Source: a virus. From it: a stretch of DNA of 31,149 nt. The translations under genes and the position numbers were made by a program. Under the pieces are notes generated by a model. That model had not been told where the DNA came from. It did no database searches and was given only the letters and a program-made list of their open reading frames with translations. Positions within the stretch are counted from its first letter, which is position 1. Each line of letters opens with the position of its first letter. This document shows positions 30 through 19,316 of the stretch, in pieces. Where the stretch lies: UHGV virus genome UHGV-0093339. The stretch is one strand, 5' to 3'.

Positions 30-209
30 TCAGGAACTTGTTCGCACCTTCCCTATCACCTGTGTACGATTAATCGTTATCTCCCCATCTTCGGTCTTTA
101 TCGTTTTGTTATGATTAACGACCGTACGATCAGAGATCTTAGTCTTGTTCTGGTTGATAACGTAAATAATCACCGCAACCACACCAACAACTATCCAGAA
201 AACTTCCAT
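30..209 (-). CDS. hypothetical small membrane protein (59 aa)
   Basis: Read by hand on the minus strand: ATG at 209-207 with GAGG about 8 nt upstream, stop TGA at 32-30; N-terminus MEVFWIVVGVVAVIIYVI is a probable TM helix; below the ORF-track length cutoff; dyad at 230-244 lies just upstream. Confidence 0.4.
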   Translation of the reverse strand: MEVFWIVVGVVAVIIYVINQNKTKISDRTVVNHNKTIKTEDGEITINRTQVIGKVRTSS

Positions 210-2794: not shown

Positions 2795-5269
2795 TTATTG
2801 CGGAGTGACATCCTGTGGTCGCCACCAGTATGTCTGGTTAAACTCTTTCTTCGAACGTTGCTCCATTTTACGCAAATAACCTGGTGAAAAATACTCCTGC
2901 ATCTGGTTAAAGATCATGTGATCGAGAGCCGCCTTTAAGTACCAGAGATTCGCACCTGGCATCAGACCTTTCCCCAGCTTAACCAGATCACCACCAGTCT
3001 GCTCATTCTTCCCTTCCACAGCATTTAACGGTATGCCCTGAGCAATCTTCACTACGTCATCAACCAGACCAGCTACCGGGCCAAGCATCGACGCCAGCGC
3101 GCCGCTTCCGTACCTAGTGTGATCTGACAATAAAAAGTCACCGTAAAGGCCAAGACCACCACCTTTCAGTAGAGCACCAAGCCAAAATTTAGCAGCATCT
3201 TCTCCTGTCATCTCGCGAGGATTACGACCAGACGCAAGGTCGTTAAGTTGCTGCGACAAAGCGCCAAGAATGGTCGTACTGGCAATAAACGTCGCAATAT
3301 ATGCCGCACGCCCACCAGCAGACGGCATACCCATAGCGCGTGACCAGTGACGCATAACCACCGAGATAGGGAACGATTTAAACAGGAAAACACTTCTCGT
3401 TAATTCACCTTTCCATGTTCCACGCTGAATACCAGAACCGGTTATCAGTTGCTCACGTGCTCCCGGTGTAATAACAGCCATATCAACTTCTTCAGTTACG
3501 GCACCGAGCAGTTTACGCATTGCCTCAAATTTCACGCGTTCAGGCTCACCAAGATGTTTAACTGCTGAATCAGGGATACGCATAATGCTTTCCGGTGTCA
3601 GCATCGTATTATTGCCGTTCCCCCAGTCCTCCTGTTGCGCCAGCTTCCATACGCTCCAGTCTGTGTCAGTAATCCCTTTGCTTTTCAGGATACGAAAATC
3701 AGAATCATCGAGGCTACGAAGGTCTGGTGTCCGTGACACTACTTCTCCCAGGCTTCCCATCATGGTTACGCCATAGGCGCGCTTGTGCGCATCTGACCAT
3801 GCTGTAAGCCCACTGGCACGCATCACCGCCGTTGCAGCCCAACGAGACACAGACGGCCCCATATTATCCATCGCCCAGCGGTTAACGCTGCCAAGTAGAG
3901 ATTCCATCGCCAGACCAGCGCGGCGCGCCCGCGCAAGTTCTGTACGGTTCGTTGGGTCCATAGCTTCAAGCTGGTTGCGGAATAACTGGTTCATTGGAAG
4001 GTTGGTAACCTTCGCAGACAGATACATGGTTCCAAGATCAGAGAACGATGACAGCAACGCGGATCCGAGTCTGCTGGCAACCAGCCAGTTGCGGATATTG
4101 TCAGACCATCGCGCGATGTGCGGATTCGCTACAGGCTGTGTCTTTCCGGAAATAAAGTTGTACAGATTCTCTGTGTTGTTCGCCAGCCGCTCGACTTTAC
4201 CGGTTTTACTCGGGTTAGCTGTTGCCGTTTCTGCCTTCACCTGATCAAGAAGAGAGCGGAAAACATGATCGGGGTTTGGGCCATATGTTTCCACCAATGC
4301 AATATCTTTACTGATACCTTCAAGGTGACCGACCATGATTTCCCATAGAGAGCGATCGCCATAAAGTTGCTGATATTGCAGATAGGAATCTGCATCTTTG
4401 AAATGTATCTGTCGTGATGCATTACCACGGTTAGCACGTGCGCCGGAAATTCGCATTCCGGTATCAGTAAGCTTATTCAGCCCACCAGTAGCGATCGTGT
4501 TATAAGCCTCTCCAAGAAATGCAGACAACTCGGCATCGTTCATCAGTTGTCCATCGGCTAGGGTATAATATTTGCGATCCAGCTTACCTATAACATCGCT
4601 AACCCATTTATCTTTTGATACCGCCCCAACCTTTTCCATAGAATGATGTTGAGGGATCCCCCAGTTTTCGAGATAGCCAGTGTCCCCACCAGCATCATTA
4701 AACCGGCGGCGCAGCAGCTCTGTAACTTCTCTCCACGCCTTAGCACCTTTTCTTGCTTTAGCATTGCCAGTATTTTGCCCCCGCATTTCATATACCAGGT
4801 CACGTACGCCCGCTTCATCTTCAAACAGACCAAAAAAGCGAGGATCAACTGCTTCGAATGCCTCCTGCAATTGACTCAATGCATAATCACGGGTGGCTTT
4901 TGTTCTGGATTCAACAGAGAGGAAATTCGATTTACCGTCTGCATTAAAAGCAATAGTACGGTTAAGAGCGCCAAGTTTCCCATCAGCCCCTTGATAGCTA
5001 TTGATAAATTTATCCAATCTCTGACGTGCGGCTATAGTGAGGGCCACACGACGTTTCTTTAATGCCGCTTCTCGCTGTAATTCTTCAGATGCCAATTGTG
5101 CTGCACGATACAACCGTTCTGATTCGGAAAGTTGTCGCCACGACATCGGGTCATCACGAGCAATGGAGCGCATATTTCGATAAATGCGGTCTTCAATGTT
5201 CTGTATTTCTCGCGCCGTTAACGTGCGCTGCGCCGCCTGCTGGACCGCTTGTATACATTCCTGTCTCAT
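2795..5269 (-). CDS. virion internal/ejection-type protein (824 aa), putative
   Basis: Long ORF with GAGAGG RBS; position after the other large virion genes in a T7-like order; assignment by position and size only. Confidence 0.5.
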   Translation of the reverse strand: MRQECIQAVQQAAQRTLTAREIQNIEDRIYRNMRSIARDDPMSWRQLSESERLYRAAQLASEELQREAALKKRRVALTIAARQRLDKFINSYQGADGKLGALNRTIAFNADGKSNFLSVESRTKATRDYALSQLQEAFEAVDPRFFGLFEDEAGVRDLVYEMRGQNTGNAKARKGAKAWREVTELLRRRFNDAGGDTGYLENWGIPQHHSMEKVGAVSKDKWVSDVIGKLDRKYYTLADGQLMNDAELSAFLGEAYNTIATGGLNKLTDTGMRISGARANRGNASRQIHFKDADSYLQYQQLYGDRSLWEIMVGHLEGISKDIALVETYGPNPDHVFRSLLDQVKAETATANPSKTGKVERLANNTENLYNFISGKTQPVANPHIARWSDNIRNWLVASRLGSALLSSFSDLGTMYLSAKVTNLPMNQLFRNQLEAMDPTNRTELARARRAGLAMESLLGSVNRWAMDNMGPSVSRWAATAVMRASGLTAWSDAHKRAYGVTMMGSLGEVVSRTPDLRSLDDSDFRILKSKGITDTDWSVWKLAQQEDWGNGNNTMLTPESIMRIPDSAVKHLGEPERVKFEAMRKLLGAVTEEVDMAVITPGAREQLITGSGIQRGTWKGELTRSVFLFKSFPISVVMRHWSRAMGMPSAGGRAAYIATFIASTTILGALSQQLNDLASGRNPREMTGEDAAKFWLGALLKGGGLGLYGDFLLSDHTRYGSGALASMLGPVAGLVDDVVKIAQGIPLNAVEGKNEQTGGDLVKLGKGLMPGANLWYLKAALDHMIFNQMQEYFSPGYLRKMEQRSKKEFNQTYWWRPQDVTPQ

Positions 5270-14880: not shown

Positions 14881-16450
14881 TTACACCACGCGGGCTTCTG
14901 TTTCCAGAAGCGCATCAGTTTCACGGATTGGTACACCACGGAATGAAGTCCACCACTCGCCTTCTGTCTCTTTTACGCTGATCGCCAGAGATGTTTTCTC
15001 CAGAGATTGCAGATCAAGAGCCTGGCCTACAGTGCGGTTCATGTAGAACACCGGGCGACCCATGCCACGGTTTGGAATTCGATGCAGTGCTTTAACCATC
15101 AACTTCGCAATATTTGCGGCAGAGGAAGGTTCTGAAAGATTGCTGACATCGATGTTTGCAATGCGAACAACATAACGCCAGTCACGCAGAGCAAGTCCGT
15201 TATCCCATTTGTAATGGGTGCGATAGCCTTCGTACTTGCCGCCATTAGCATCTTCCAGTGTCACCTGGCCTTTATCTTCCATCTGGATGCCAGCCTTCTG
15301 CCCTTTCGGGAAGATGCCATGCACGGTGTTTTCGCCCCACACCACTAACCAGATTGAGGTGTTATCTGTACCCGTGCCACCAGCATCAATGATGTTCTGA
15401 GCATTACCCGCAGACAGGCTGGAATAGCGGGAGGACAGTCCCATAAACTGCTGAGGGTTAACGCTGGAATCACCATAAAACAGCGTCTGCGCCATCTGCT
15501 GATTCATCGCTTCAATAAATGCGCGGTCTTCAGACAGGCGGAATTCGGCGGTATTGCCGTTCAGATCAGCCAGTGACTTATCGACTTCAGCATAGGTTTC
15601 CAGCATGCCCACGGAATCGGTTACCCGGGCATGATGATCCATAAACATCTTCGCCGTTAACTTCCCAGCGCGGAGCCATAATTGGAAACTCATCGAATCC
15701 GGACTCACGCAACAACTTGTCGTTATCGCCACCAACCTCGTAATAAACCGATTTGAATGGCTTGTTCTTGCTATCCAGCTTCGATGTATCGCGGTCAATG
15801 TTCGGGTAAACCGAATGCATCACTTCAATCCACTTCTCGTAGGTGCCGCTTTCCCACATGCTTTTTACGGATTCGCTGACGTTATTTAGCCCGAACTCCT
15901 GAACAAGCTGACGAACAGTCATAGCGAACTTGCGAAAACAGGTGTCCACACTGCCACGAGGTGAGTTAGCCAGGTAGTAACTGCCTATCGGGAATGGCAT
16001 TGTGCGAATGATGTCCTCGTCATCTTCCAGCACTGCCATTGCACCAGTGCTGTATGTGCCGAGGCTTCCGTATAACTGCGGCAGCGACTGATAGAGATTC
16101 GACTTATTGAACATATCGTTCATGCGGTTCTGCACCGCCTCAAGCCACAACTTAACAGGGCCATAATCCATCATTTCAGGATCTGGCGTAGCCAGGCGAA
16201 ACCACGGACGCGCGGGGCTTGTGATGCCTGACACCATGCCGCTGGCGAGAGTGCGCGCCGCCATAGTCCCGGTCGAATCAATAATGCGTGTATTGCGTCG
16301 ATCGTTACGGTTGACCTCAGAAGTCAGAAAGCGGGAACCACGCGGGTTGATGTAATCACTCAACTCGCGCCAGTGCGGCTCGAACGACTGACGCTCGCTT
16401 TCAAGTTGTGCGAACTGTTTGTTCAATCGCTCTTTAGTTGTTTCCGCCAT
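14881..16450 (-). pseudogene. portal-like head gene split between two reading frames near 15620-15650
   Basis: ORF-track 15587..16450 and 14881..15798 overlap by about 70 codons in different frames; protein-like sequence ends in one frame at ...PRWEVNGEDVYG and resumes in the other at ...ARVTDSVGMLETYAEV; N-terminus and the GE(D/S)YG region resemble the T7 portal from memory; the listed start of the second ORF is a TTG. Confidence 0.45.
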
Positions 16451-16464
16451 TTCAATGACTCCGG

Positions 16465-16671
16465 TTACTGACCAAGCAGCGTTTTACCGCTGGTATTAGC
16501 GGTTGATGTGTCGCCCTGAGAACCGGTAAGCAGCGTAGAACTACGACCAGCAGCAGCGCGACGGCGACGAGTTTCTTCGTCGCGGGCATCAACAACGGCG
16601 GCATCCTGCTCCTGTGGTGCTGCCTGAACTTCTGGTGTTGCAGGCACTGACGGTGAGCTACCCATGCACAT
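16465..16671 (-). CDS. hypothetical low-complexity small protein (68 aa)
   Basis: ORF-track; ATG preceded by the same cggagtcattga element that precedes the portal-like start at 16450. Confidence 0.35.
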   Translation of the reverse strand: MCMGSSPSVPATPEVQAAPQEQDAAVVDARDEETRRRRAAAGRSSTLLTGSQGDTSTANTSGKTLLGQ

Positions 16672-16761
16672 ATCAATGACTCCGTACGCAATTAAATTAT
16701 TACCAATTTAACCACATATGATTTATTTATCGTAGATAGTTGACATTTAACGCACAAATTA

Positions 16762-16776
16762 TTACCTTTCAGGTAA
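16762..16776. promoter_or_regulatory. operator-like dyad TTACCTTTCAGGTAA upstream of the head operon
   Basis: Perfect TTACC-N5-GGTAA; a TTGACA hexamer on the plus strand lies at 16740-16745. Confidence 0.4.
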
Positions 16777-17098
16777 CCAAAGAGTTCATTCCGGTTACTA
16801 ACCTGACTGGCTTGTCGTTAAATTGAACAGGTGGAGTGAGCTTTTATTTTGAGCAGTACGGCGTATGGCACATGCGCCGATAGCGGTCTGGATACGTTTA
16901 AGGGGCACCCTCCCTTGCTCGGGCAAACGAACCAGGTAGCCGGAATGTGCAAGTCGAGCGGTTTTATTCCGCGCACGGGGATTCACCATCCCGGCGATTC
17001 GGTGTGACGCCTCGGAAGAGACGAGGGTACAACGATGAGAGCATTTATGGAGCCGCGACAAAGTGTGGTGCCTTAACAGGCTAAGTGCTCTCAGCGTT

Positions 17099-17175
17099 GT
17101 GGCATTAGCTCAGTTGGACAGAGCAACCGCCTTCTAAGCGGTTGGTCGCAGGTTCGAATCCTGCATGCCACGCCA
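17099..17175 (+). tRNA. tRNA-Arg (anticodon TCT)
   Basis: Cloverleaf folded by hand: 7-bp acceptor stem gtggcat/atgccac, D-arm gctc-agttggaca-gagc, anticodon stem accgc/gcggt with loop cttctaa (anticodon TCT at 17133-17135), T-arm gcagg-ttcgaat-cctgc, discriminator G and encoded CCA. Confidence 0.85.
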
Positions 17176-17218
17176 GAATCACGCCTAAGGACCGTGATGC
17201 CAGAAGTTCCAGGGGCTT

Positions 17219-17260
17219 GGCGGTGATGGTTTCCCTTGAAGGACTATCACCGCCCTTTTT
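17219..17260 (+). terminator. putative intrinsic terminator downstream of the tRNA
   Basis: ggcggtgat...atcaccgcc stem followed by TTTTT. Confidence 0.5.
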
Positions 17261-17338
17261 ACAGCAGGACGCCATTGCGATGACTTCATGCTGTAAACCA
17301 GTACAGCCACGGAAGGCATAACTCATTGCTTCCAGTTC

Positions 17339-17362
17339 GCCCGGTTCGCCGGGCATTTTTTT
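17339..17362 (+). terminator. intrinsic terminator
   Basis: gcccgg-ttcg-ccgggc hairpin followed by seven T. Confidence 0.6.
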
Positions 17363-17378
17363 AAGGTGAGATTAGACT

Positions 17379-17750
17379 ATGAGTGACAAAGACATTGAAT
17401 CTGAAATTCAGGCTAAAGGTTTAGCCGCGCCGCGCGTTACGCCAGACCATATCGAGAGCATTATTGCTCAGGAGGCATATTTCACAGCAGAAGATGGTGC
17501 CTTTGGCGTAGCCATAAAAGCGAAACATACTGGCGGAGAGGTAAACTACCAGCCGCACGAATCACTTTCTCTGCTGACGTTCTGCGTCCTGGTGCTGCGC
17601 AACGGCTTCACCGTCACCGGAGAGAGCGCCTGTGCAAGCCCGGAAAACTTTGATGCAGAAATTGGTCGGAAGATTGCCCGACAGAATGCTGTAAACAAAA
17701 TCTGGATGCTTGAAGGTTACTTGCTGAAGCAGAAGTTAAGCGAGCAATAA
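17379..17750 (+). CDS. hypothetical protein (123 aa), moron gene
   Basis: ORF-track; AAGGTGAG RBS; plus-strand gene embedded between the terminase gene and the head genes, both on the minus strand. Confidence 0.6.
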   Translation: MSDKDIESEIQAKGLAAPRVTPDHIESIIAQEAYFTAEDGAFGVAIKAKHTGGEVNYQPHESLSLLTFCVLVLRNGFTVTGESACASPENFDAEIGRKIARQNAVNKIWMLEGYLLKQKLSEQ

Positions 17751-17840
17751 CACCGTGACATATCACAAACAGCCAGCCTATGAGCTGGCTTTGTTTTATC
17801 CTCATCAGAGGATATCAACAACATTATCCCCTCAAGCGGA

Positions 17841-19316
17841 TTAAGCATAGGGATCGTAATCTGTGATGGCCTTGCCTTGCTGGTTCTGCTGCCCGGGAAT
17901 TCGCAGACGCTTAGACACAGGGAACGCAAACGTCAGCAGTAGCGCATCGCCTTTACCCGGCGAACGCCCAAGCCGCTCCTTGATATCTTCCTTCGGTTCG
18001 ATAACGATTTTACCGTCCACGCGAACTTTGTACTCTGCCGCCGACAGATCGTCCGCTGTTTCCTGGTCATCCAGCATCCCTCCCAACCTCAGCCATGTCT
18101 TGCATGAGTTGAACATCTCCCCACGCTTGTTAAGCATCTGCGGGTCAGTGGACGCACCGCCGAACGGAACAAGTTGCCATGTACGACCCCAGCCATCACC
18201 GATTGACTTCAGACCGGTTCCGTAACCGAAGTCAATGAACACCGCGTCAGCATTGTACTGGTCTTCAAAGTCAGCGATACGCTTCGCCATAATCAGATCG
18301 TCAGTGGTCTTGTTGCCAGTCCATAGCATCTTACTATGCAACCCCTGCCGCAGGTATATCACCGCGTCATCAACGCCGGAGTATGCCGGGTCAACGCCGA
18401 TTATCACCGGAGCATGTGCAACCTGCGCAGCGGTTACCACCCGTTTCATTGCCTCATCAGTAAGACCGGTAGGGATAAACTGCAATTCAGATGCATCAGG
18501 GAATATGCCGCGCACACGGATTTTAACGAAGTCGCTGTCTTCCCCGTAGTCATCAACCCATTTCTGCAACTGCTGTTTGTTAGTGCCTTCCACCGTCCGG
18601 CTGTCAATCTGCGCAGTTTTCCAGCGGTGTTTATATTTGCGGAAACATTCGCGGAAACGCCCGGTATTACGCGTCGGGTTCCCGAACGCCACCCAGATGA
18701 TTTCGGTGTCTTCGTCCGTCAGCGCACCCTCTGCTACCTCCCACACCAGATCGGCAATGTTGGATGCTTCGTCGAAAACCACGATGATGCGTTTGCGCTC
18801 GTTGTGTAGTCCGGCGAATGCCTCAGTGTTGTGCTCAGACCAGGGGATTGCGTCAGCTCGCCACCGCTTGTCGTGCCCAGGATCATTGCTGTACATCGCG
18901 GTAGCGGTACAGGTAAACCAGTCTTTCGTGATGGCAAGGTTCGACCACTTGATAATTTCCGGCCAGGTCTTCGTTCGTAGCTGGTTGTCGGTGTTGGCGG
19001 TCACCACGACCTTACAATCCTCGCAAGTGGACATGCCCCAGTTGATCAGCATTGAGATGAATGCGGATTTACCAATACCGTGACCAGAAGCGCGTGCCAG
19101 CATAAGCGGCTGATAGCGCGTCTCTGGATTCTGCAGGTGATCACGTATCTCTCGGAACGCATCGGCCTGCCACTGACGTGGACCGGTAGCATGTGCCAGT
19201 TCAGTCCCCTCTTCCCCCCAAGGGAACGCATAGAGGGCATAGCCAAGCGGATCGTGAGTGAACCCTGCAATATCTTCGATTAACTGCTCTTCAGGAGATA
19301 ACGCTGCATCTGTCAC
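17841..19316 (-). CDS. terL: terminase large subunit
   Basis: 491-aa ORF with an N-terminal ATPase-like region (GHGIGKS P-loop-like, VVFDEAS Walker B-like) and a C-terminal nuclease-like half; overlaps the small-subunit gene stop. Confidence 0.8.
   Translation of the reverse strand: MTDAALSPEEQLIEDIAGFTHDPLGYALYAFPWGEEGTELAHATGPRQWQADAFREIRDHLQNPETRYQPLMLARASGHGIGKSAFISMLINWGMSTCEDCKVVVTANTDNQLRTKTWPEIIKWSNLAITKDWFTCTATAMYSNDPGHDKRWRADAIPWSEHNTEAFAGLHNERKRIIVVFDEASNIADLVWEVAEGALTDEDTEIIWVAFGNPTRNTGRFRECFRKYKHRWKTAQIDSRTVEGTNKQQLQKWVDDYGEDSDFVKIRVRGIFPDASELQFIPTGLTDEAMKRVVTAAQVAHAPVIIGVDPAYSGVDDAVIYLRQGLHSKMLWTGNKTTDDLIMAKRIADFEDQYNADAVFIDFGYGTGLKSIGDGWGRTWQLVPFGGASTDPQMLNKRGEMFNSCKTWLRLGGMLDDQETADDLSAAEYKVRVDGKIVIEPKEDIKERLGRSPGKGDALLLTFAFPVSKRLRIPGQQNQQGKAITDYDPYA

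Follow-up and report, generated by a model that had tools for sequence, protein, structure and literature searches.

Conserved structured RNA modules next to a tRNA-Arg gene in an island of phiV10-like prophages

The window analyzed here, the whole 31,149 nucleotides (nt) of virus genome UHGV-0093339, is a phiV10/epsilon15-like (Uetakevirus) prophage of E. coli. It carries a small island of plus-strand elements, flanked by three minus-strand genes: terL, a small open reading frame (ORF), and the portal gene. The initial annotation had described a separately oriented moron island between terL and the head genes, and this description was borne out. In order along the plus strand, the island comprises a candidate promoter, a leader hairpin (B'), a compact pseudoknotted RNA (module A), a second hairpin (module B), a gene for tRNA-Arg(UCU), a predicted terminator (T1), a small RNA (sRNA)-like module ending in another predicted terminator (T2), a Shine-Dalgarno (SD) sequence, and a gene of the Acb4 family (Table 1). 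The interval 16680-17850, which covers the island with its flanks, is 100% identical to E. coli ML35, where the RefSeq labels read "Gp49 family protein", tRNA-Arg, and terminase, and nothing else; its identity to phage phiV10 and to O157 typing phages 9 and 10 is 98%. As a whole, the island is not new, since phiV10-type genomes have it, and there is nothing unusual about its tRNA and "gp49" gene. Modules A and B, on the other hand, are absent from Rfam 15 and unannotated in every record that we inspected, and comparative alignments show both to be conserved structured RNAs on the plus strand.

The initial annotation had found no convincing ORF in 16800-17098, had noted that the interval is self-complementary, and had offered three options for it: a degenerate tRNA, a small RNA, or a remnant of a deleted gene. 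The second option came closest. The self-complementarity is far above chance, and it is kept in unrelated phages with compensatory base-pair changes. Only ORFs of 45-87 aa exist in 16780-17098 on either strand, and a coding role was rejected: the ORFs are short, inconsistent, and distributed over both strands, and indels among homologues, which fall in variable hairpins, are not multiples of three. Annotators of related phages likewise disagree on tiny ORFs in the homologous sequences, again on both strands. No recognizable gene end was found in 16800-17098, and the degenerate tRNA was rejected as well, since neither the tRNA model nor ARAGORN gave a signal in 16780-17098.

The helices of module A were defined by alignment and are numbered here from its first base (16858 is position 1). 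The covariance model built for it, R1, scores the window element at 139.7 bits (E 7.5e-45) and finds a single copy in the window. Across 33 representatives, 93.8% of the cells in paired columns are paired, and 13 pairs are doubly changed, versus 1-7 in controls with slid pairing; none of 500 shuffles reached the observed pairing percentage or covariation score, and one of 500 reached the count of doubly changed pairs. A larger test used 60 matches, aligned with the model, of which 54 are distinct. In this set, 95.0% of the pair cells are paired, 14 pairs are doubly changed (2-7 in slid controls), and none of 500 shuffles reached the observed values. An all-against-all scan of alignment columns revealed a loop-to-strand pseudoknot, PK1, which was left out of the covariance model used for the 54-sequence alignment. 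Its pair C127:G147 is C:G in 48 of the 54 sequences and A:U in the remaining six, with no mismatches; the A:U form occurs in a lambdoid clade and also in a Buttiauxella prophage, on a different P4 background. Because the frequent G-U pairs of module A (U7-G17 in 51 of 54 sequences and U30-G82 in 53 of 54) would be A-C mismatches on the other strand, they mark the plus strand as functional. A second candidate pseudoknot, PK2, between GCAC in the P1 loop and GUGC at positions 90-93, is near-invariant; it is broken without compensation in two loci (L153 and L090), and we consider it unsupported.

A 19-nt block within module A is identical in every collected sequence except a diverged second copy in one locus. 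The corresponding 19-mer, GGTAGCCGGAATGTGCAAG, was already identical in the phages found by BLAST, before it was used as a probe. The exceptional locus (L023, minus strand) has two tandem copies of module A, at 4000-4153 and 4807-4958, about 800 nt apart. Its second copy scores 119 bits and is the sole sequence with changes in the block (GGAAGCUGG); these changes, together with a change of U30 to C, preserve the P2a pairs.

No Rfam family matched modules A or B, either in the Rfam 15 scan of the whole window at gathering thresholds or in a permissive scan of 16600-17850 (E<=10); the same was true of seven related loci (E<=1) and of the leader of phage LLS. The plus strand of 16780-17098 gave no match at all, and two matches of its minus strand to eukaryotic families (E>3) are spurious. 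Literature searches by sequence and by topic, with a coverage that did not extend to King et al. 2011, returned no description of the module A/B element.

Module B folds at -35 kcal/mol (z -4.49), and none of 200 shuffles folded as well. RNAalifold, applied to 18 diverse members, supports 17 pairs, nine of which show compensatory changes. The stem occurs in several versions (GAGAGCA/UGCUCUC, GAGAGUA/UACUCUC, AAGCGCAC/GUGCGCUU, and GAUGGCU/AGUCAUC), and the last G of the module is also G1 of tRNA-Arg. The apex, which in the window comprises 39 nt with two small hairpins, is variable: between otherwise near-identical loci it is hypervariable, with about 30 alleles, and the window allele is common to lambdoid phages. 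Hairpin B', which is of the module B type, is weak on its own in the window (-22.9 kcal/mol, z -1.66). It is clearer in Salmonella phage PAT1, which has a 13-bp stem, AAAGCGCGCUUCA/GGAGUGCGCUUU, in the same position (z -3.1). A boxA-like reading of the 3' strand of B (UGCUCUUU) was weak, since its variable position covaries with the pairing partner, giving GCGCUU or GCCCUU. In one relative (L058, 384-430, plus strand), a hammerhead-ribozyme-like core (CUGAAGAG ... CGAAAC ... GUC) sits inside a 173-nt apex of module B; it scores 28.7 bits versus a gathering score of 34 (E 0.004).

Module B constitutes a separate hairpin family, and a very common one. A pattern for the 3' strand of the variant found in phage LLS, GTGCGCTYCCAGTTGTGG, retrieved more than 120 further IMG/VR loci. 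The module A 19-mer was present upstream of such LLS-type B modules in 11 of 121 places and absent in 110, and tRNA-Arg(TCT) followed in 21 of 120 loci with the same junction as in the window, GTT|GTGGCAT. The LLS-type apex has a conserved motif of its own, GG...GGU(U/G)UG..AC. Hairpins of the B type also occur in tandem within one pL leader, and in LLS itself (L161 7700-8380, minus strand) the leader contains B modules, a tRNA-like slot, an RprA-like sRNA, and a terminator, without module A.

A sensitive BLAST search with 16855-17102 matched 83 phage records; nearly all are unannotated under the match, and a few have "hypothetical protein" calls. The 169-nt core of module A was found in 1,834 of 5,426 complete E. 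coli genomes (34%), in 2,465 places, 554 of them on plasmids. In 40 of 40 sampled E. coli matches, the RefSeq annotation under the match was "None". With the exact 19-mer as the probe, we recovered more than 120 loci from IMG/VR, with 107 distinct versions, and 24 loci among 185,579 species-representative genomes. The latter are all from Enterobacterales, except for two contigs of metagenome-assembled genomes labeled Oscillospiraceae and Bacillota (L142 and L154), which carry the exact 19-mer; L154 is a full match at 161 bits. These two are probably mis-binned contigs of enterobacterial phages and not true hosts.

The genomic contexts of module A are diverse. Among lambdoid and Stx phages (mEp460, cdtI, 2H10, Ayreon, Stx2c and Stx2a phages, and mEp390, plus a Stenotrophomonas phage), it shares the strand of a cI-type repressor gene and follows directly after it, where the early-left operon begins and behind a pL-like promoter. 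It is also carried by P1, P7, D6, SJ46, and RCS47; in P7, it is located between tRNA-Ile and ban, in the C1-controlled ban operon. In loci of the P1 type, the order is reversed: module A comes 18 nt after the end of a tRNA with the anticodon CAT, module B is lacking, and the ribosome-binding site of ban comes next. The Uetakeviruses Tyrion, SPN1S, and PAT1 have module A in the same island as the window, and in Klebsiella phage SopranoGao it starts at about +1 of a promoter, near the genome end. A tRNA is located directly 5' of module A in 17 of 127 loci. No conserved protein neighbor was seen across the contexts examined.

Strong matches to a sigma-70 promoter were found ahead of module A in 47 of 130 loci, their -10 hexamers ending 6-125 nt upstream; one example, TTGACA-16-CATAAT, ends 52-53 nt upstream. 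Some of these promoters end 6-7 nt upstream, and transcription would therefore start at the first base of module A. In the window, an alternative promoter, TAGATA-N18-AATTAT, overlaps the candidate listed in Table 1; in close relatives, TAGACA-N18-AATTAT scores 9/12, and its -10 hexamer ends 95 nt upstream of module A. A promoter consensus scan returned no site at threshold, which leaves the "head-operon promoter" of the initial annotation a putative one.

Table 1. Positions of the island elements and flanking genes in the window (helices of module A in module A numbering)
Feature	Position	Strand	Basis or remark
Portal gene	15587-16450	-	flanking gene
Small ORF	16465-16671	-	flanking gene
Candidate sigma-70 promoter, TTGACA-N17-TACCTT	16740-16768	+	read from sequence; TTGACA 16740-16745, TACCTT 16763-16768
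Leader hairpin B', module B type (AAAGAGUUCAUUCC ... GGUGGAGUGAGCUUU)	16780-16846	+	fold
Module A, 169-nt pseudoknotted RNA	16858-17026	+	alignment, covariance model R1
Module A, P1	2-9/15-22	+	alignment
Module A, P2a	27-30/82-85	+	alignment
Module A, P2b	31-34/75-78	+	variable-length extension
Module A, variable hairpin	about 99-118	+	alignment
Module A, P4	121-125/131-135	+	alignment
Module A, PK1, loop-to-strand pseudoknot	127-130/144-147	+	all-against-all column scan
Module A, P6	153-157/165-169	+	alignment
Invariant block GGUAGCCGGAAUGUGCAAG	16935-16953	+	within module A
Module B, CAAC-GAU-GAGAGCAUU (apex) AAGUGCUCUC-AGC-GUUG	17030-17099	+	fold and RNAalifold
tRNA-Arg(UCU), encoded CCA	17099-17175	+	ARAGORN and Rfam RF00005
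tRNA trailer ending in T1	17176-17262	+	T1 stem 17219-17254, then CUUUUU
sRNA-like module ending in T2	17263-17362	+	T2 stem 17339-17354, A, U7 17356-17362
123-aa gene, PF13876	17379-17750	+	SD AAGGUGA 17363-17369, directly after T-run
Bidirectional terminator-like hairpin	17771-17790		between convergent Acb4-family gene and terL
terL	17841-19316	-	flanking gene

The remaining parts of the island agree with the initial annotation, all items of which are present, with small refinements of coordinates only: a tRNA-Arg(TCT) opposite in orientation to the virion genes, two intrinsic terminators behind it, and an independently oriented 123-aa gene with a good ribosome-binding site. ARAGORN reports one tRNA in the window, with the anticodon tct at position 35 and a sequence ending in ATGCCAC-G-CCA. 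The Rfam tRNA model concurs (17099-17172, 73.3 bits versus a gathering score of 29, E 1.9e-14), and the tRNA is genuine. The suggestion that this tRNA reads AGA codons and may offset rare codons gained ground from codon counts. E. coli K-12 averages about 2 AGA and about 1 AGG per 1,000 codons; in 30 non-overlapping window ORFs from crude ORF calling (8,506 codons), the frequencies are 6.8 and 4.5, about three times that average, and AGA and AGG make up 11.2% and 7.3% of arginine codons. A role as codon supply for AGA-rich phage genes is thus supported at the level of sequence.

In its standard cloverleaf, UCU anticodon, encoded CCA, and AGA-rich phage, the window tRNA is like other phage tRNA-Arg(UCU); unlike them, it is fused at its 5' end to a conserved hairpin, and its slot is elsewhere filled by non-tRNA domains. 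The GUUGUGG at the 3' end of module B overlaps the 5' acceptor strand of whatever element follows. Among 127 loci with module A, 27, including the window, have the junction GTT|GTGGCAT to tRNA-Arg(UCU) after module B. In many lambdoid loci, GUUGUGG(UGA) pairs with (UCA)CCACAAC 90-280 nt downstream and closes a variable domain, so that the slot holds a tRNA-like or acceptor-like domain, GUUGUGG...CCACAAC. In locus L094, the tRNA model scores the slot at 43.9 bits, with D and T arms and a 64-nt insert.

A terminator scan of 16400-18000 gave six sites versus 1.7 expected. T1 and T2 both have a GC-rich hairpin followed by a U-run and are predicted terminators. The tRNA trailer, which folds at -31.5 kcal/mol (z -2.58), could be an sRNA-like unit. 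The T2 module, about 100 nt long, is conserved across Uetakevirus-type loci in two alternative "seed" versions, and T2 lies 400-735 nt downstream of the 19-mer in all of them. T2 (GCCCGGTTCGCCGGGC plus T7) is followed directly by the SD sequence AAGGTGA, and this junction (window 17339-17381) is conserved in loci L003-L145. Behind it we found at least seven different ORF N-termini, and some loci have no following gene; T2 and the SD sequence together make up a conserved socket for different cargo genes.

Several phage-encoded units downstream of the modules resemble sRNAs of the host. The T2 module has a 13-nt identity to the RyhB core, CAUUGCUUCCAGU, just upstream of the terminator, which may be due to chance; RyhB identity of 17308-17362 is not significant (18.1 bits versus a gathering score of 55, E 2.2), and relatives carry an alternative seed, CAUCAUCCCUG, in place of the RyhB-like one. 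RprA-like 3' halves with a terminator occur in L127 (2631-2750, 50.2 bits) and in LLS (L161 7894-8030, minus strand, 40.8 bits), both versus a gathering score of 70, with a 24-nt identity, AUUGCUGUGUGUAGUCUUUGCCC; their position matches that of the tRNA trailer in the window, with the same kind of terminator. A DicF-like segment was detected in L081 (802-854, minus strand, 27.7 bits). The slot between T2 and terL is variable: phage PAS61 has an unrelated 140-aa gene there (L160 1125-1547 versus window 17313-17748), and PAT1 has a 143-aa ORF with no Pfam match.

The product of the 123-aa gene matches the full Pfam profile PF13876 (Phage_gp49_66; positions 1-82 of 82) with E 2.4e-35 and 121.3 bits versus a cut-off of 27. 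RefSeq names it "Gp49 family protein", and it belongs to PHROG 322, function unknown. Chang et al. place Acb4 of Bacillus phage SPO1 in PF13876, with 1,331 members, and describe these as cyclic-nucleotide sponges (PMC11722364); the label Acb4 family used here follows this 2024-25 work. The only solved relative, SPO1 Acb4 (PDB 9e4w, chain A), was matched with E 0.0068 over 42 aligned residues. Besides matching the full profile, the window protein aligns with the SPO1 chain through the motif T-CV..N.F.V.G.S....ENF..EIGR; it differs in an N-terminal extension of about 20-60 residues outside the match, and its similarity to the solved chain is low. It is therefore a predicted sponge of the Acb4 family directed against the cyclic oligonucleotide-based antiphage signaling system (CBASS). 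Because the 17 nt between the T-run of T2 and the ATG leave no room for a promoter, expression of this gene seems to need read-through of T1 and T2.

How might such an island work? We rank a trans-acting cargo RNA first, a put-like antiterminator second, and a riboswitch-like sensor lower. The first of these, to which we assign a probability of about 40%, is that the island is a processed noncoding-RNA array in which module A is a stable, trans-acting accessory RNA. The island would be a small plus-strand transcription unit consisting of an array of noncoding RNAs followed by one anti-defense gene, and its precursor would be processed into several individual, stable RNAs. Cleavage at the 5' end of the tRNA, which is the last base of hairpin B, would fall to RNase P, and cleavage in or beside the B-type hairpins to RNase III or RNase E. 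Lying between B' and B, module A would thereby be freed as a stable RNA of about 170-250 nt and would act in trans on a conserved enterobacterial component. Translation of the Acb4-family gene would require transcripts that extend past T1 and T2. Module A would thus be host-manipulating accessory cargo like its neighbors in the arrays, namely tRNA-Arg, the RprA-, DicF-, and RyhB-like sRNAs of relatives, and the Acb4 sponge.

Several features of the loci point in this direction. They include the conserved structure and strand of the modules, the lack of a conserved protein neighbor in the contexts examined, the T2-SD junction ahead of different cargo ORFs, the AGA-rich genes of the phage, and the restriction of the 19-mer to Enterobacterales. 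Module A appears modular and optional, as cargo would be, because it occurs in four array contexts and in tandem copies and because there are arrays without it. It also appears to be bracketed by likely processing signals, given the B' and B hairpins, the adjoining tRNAs, the tRNA-like domains, and the one hammerhead-like apex. Several points weigh against the cargo interpretation. Module A is the first structured element after the promoter in most contexts, which fits a cis-acting leader at least equally well. The processing steps, including the presumed cleavage by RNase III or RNase E at B hairpins, are deduced from the anatomy of the loci, and the pairing of G1 of the tRNA within hairpin B might hinder RNase P and not help it. 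In the main lambdoid class, no terminator or recognized processing site follows directly after the array, and in P1-type loci the ban ribosome-binding site comes directly after module A, leaving it without a 3' bracket. Finally, a guide or antisense role of the B apex found no support: the longest complementarity in the 31-kb window is 10 nt, within the range of shuffled sequences.

Comparison with known systems also bears on the cargo interpretation. ROOL and GOLLD (RF03087 and RF01998) are phage and prophage RNAs often found by tRNAs, with tRNAs sometimes in a variable linker; they contain pseudoknots and have neither a protein partner nor a function that is known (PMC12286853). Like them, module A adjoins tRNA-Arg or tRNA-Ile/Met, and its arrays have tRNA-like inserts. 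Unlike them, it matches no Rfam family in the scans described above, is 169 nt long (about 240 nt with B) versus 580 to >800 nt, and is restricted to Enterobacterales. Module A therefore resembles ROOL and GOLLD in lifestyle, not in sequence.

For the hairpins, one comparison is with the RNase III punctuation hairpins of phage early transcripts, such as the R sites of T7 and the hairpin of the lambda N leader. Hairpins B and B' are similar in having about 17-20 bp with an internal loop, in lying between units of an untranslated leader, and in sometimes being tandem. They differ in that the base of B (CAAC/GUUGUGG) and part of its stem are conserved in sequence and in that the 3' strand of B extends into the acceptor strand of either a tRNA or a domain resembling one.

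The second interpretation, which we consider rather unlikely, sees in module A, by itself or together with module B, a processive antiterminator that acts in cis and is comparable to put: it would allow read-through of T1 and T2 into the Acb4-family gene and, in lambdoid phages that lack N, of the early-left terminators. At the same low level of confidence, the nascent RNA would fold and bind the transcribing E. coli RNA polymerase, as a larger functional analogue, and possibly a distant relative, of the put RNAs of HK022 and HK639. The slot in lambdoid phages, after cI, a terminator, and a strong promoter, is that of nutL and N or of putL. There is no N gene in the carriers examined, and the full annotation of mEp460 is without N; the first downstream ORF in mEp460 is acidic and not N-like, and Pfam finds nothing in the downstream ORFs. 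The annotated order in Ayreon is cI, terminator, promoter, the element, genes, terminator, and more genes, and strong terminators separate the element from co-oriented ORFs that lack promoters of their own. Furthermore, Casjens and colleagues have proposed a put-like RNA for the N-less phage LLS (PMC12315714).

The resemblance to put itself is partial. Both are phage-encoded and need no dedicated protein gene nearby, and put lies directly after the early-left promoter in N-less lambdoid phages, with terminators downstream (PMC9378689). A position after an early promoter in an N-less phage is found for the lambdoid relatives of module A; the element in the window follows a candidate promoter only, in a podovirus island. 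The words ACGGCG...CAUGCGUCG are common to helix P1 and to the base of stem I of put in both HK022 and HK639; however, the shared words amount to about 15 nt in one GC-rich helix and may be due to chance. R1 found nothing at the annotated putL-like RNA of HK639, and BLAST of module A against the HK022 pL region gave words of 9-13 nt only, so that neither search detected put homology. In size and topology, put differs as well, with about 70 nt (126 nt as annotated in HK639) and two stem-loops (PMC9378689), whereas module A has 169 nt, at least four helices, and a loop pseudoknot. HK022 has copies on both the pL and the pR side, whereas module A occurs once per genome: no second, pR-side copy was found by R1 in the full mEp460 genome or in the window. 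Module A is also located deep in the ban operon of P1, where the annotated ban operator/promoter site is about 2.4 kb upstream and the last one or two genes follow, and in a podovirus island among virion genes. The antiterminator idea is further weakened by LLS, in which module A had been anticipated: this phage is without N, and its leader likewise contains a terminator, yet the module is missing. Arrays of B, tRNA, and terminator are mostly without module A, and therefore read-through in those arrays cannot depend on it.

The third interpretation, that module A is a ligand-sensing, riboswitch-like aptamer, is improbable. Expression would be controlled by the terminators or by alternative pairing of GUUG, either with CAAC of module B or with the distal CCACAAC. 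Its makeup resembles that of an aptamer, in that many nucleotides of junctions and loops are invariant, the peripheral hairpins vary, and there is a pseudoknot, and its position in a 5' leader with alternative partners for GUUG would suit such a role; on the other hand, a consistent downstream gene or expression platform is missing, as module A is followed by a tRNA, the ban ribosome-binding site, a tRNA-like domain, or sRNAs, and nothing points to a ligand, including the Rfam scans, which gave no riboswitch match. Lastly, the stretch might have no function, being a decayed tRNA, the remnant of a gene, or a recombination junction that travels with the tRNA, as the variable moron slot, the differing cargo after T2 in close relatives, and the hypervariable B apex could suggest, but this is contradicted by the covariation data (compensatory changes in 14 pairs of A and nine of B, and a covarying loop pseudoknot), by the near-identity of the 19-nt block, by the presence of module A in a third of complete E. 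coli genomes, and by the lack of any tRNA or protein-family signal in 16780-17098, and is essentially excluded.

Whether module A represents an undescribed class of compact pseudoknotted phage RNA with a specific function on a host machine, and module B a second new family that punctuates arrays, we regard as about evenly balanced. Possible roles for module A include that of an RNA-only antiterminator replacing N in many lambdoid phages and that of a trans-acting RNA that aids translation takeover or defense evasion, as an enterobacterial counterpart of ROOL and GOLLD. If so, annotation would have missed a structured RNA that is common in the best-studied bacterial host and in classic phages (P1, Stx phages, and phiV10). 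This RNA would be a testable candidate for the expression of early-left operons in lambdoid phages without N or put, or would offer a tractable system in E. coli for studying the unexplained RNAs that phages carry in clusters with tRNAs. The loci also suggest a recurring design, in which noncoding-RNA cargo is followed by a terminator and an SD socket that delivers anti-defense genes such as Acb4 homologues. With its ordinary parts confirmed (a tRNA-Arg for AGA codons, terminators, and a moron gene), the island can be properly annotated.

Elsewhere in the window, there are signs that the prophage is defective. Relative to phage PAS61, it lacks a segment of about 2.1 kb among the minus-strand genes, at about 15587-15800; this segment takes in the 3' part of the portal gene, the gene for the endoprotease, a small gene between these two, and 240 nt at the start of the major head gene. 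The remaining 287-aa portal fragment continues directly into head-gene sequence. At the start of the window, two plus-strand RNAs score above their Rfam gathering scores, the Hfq-binding RNA isrK (374-450, 76.8 bits) and C4 antisense RNA (469-555, 79.5 bits). This pair marks an antirepressor control region of the P1 immI type, and the same pair is found beside the Rha/antirepressor gene in mEp460 (L001 706-894).

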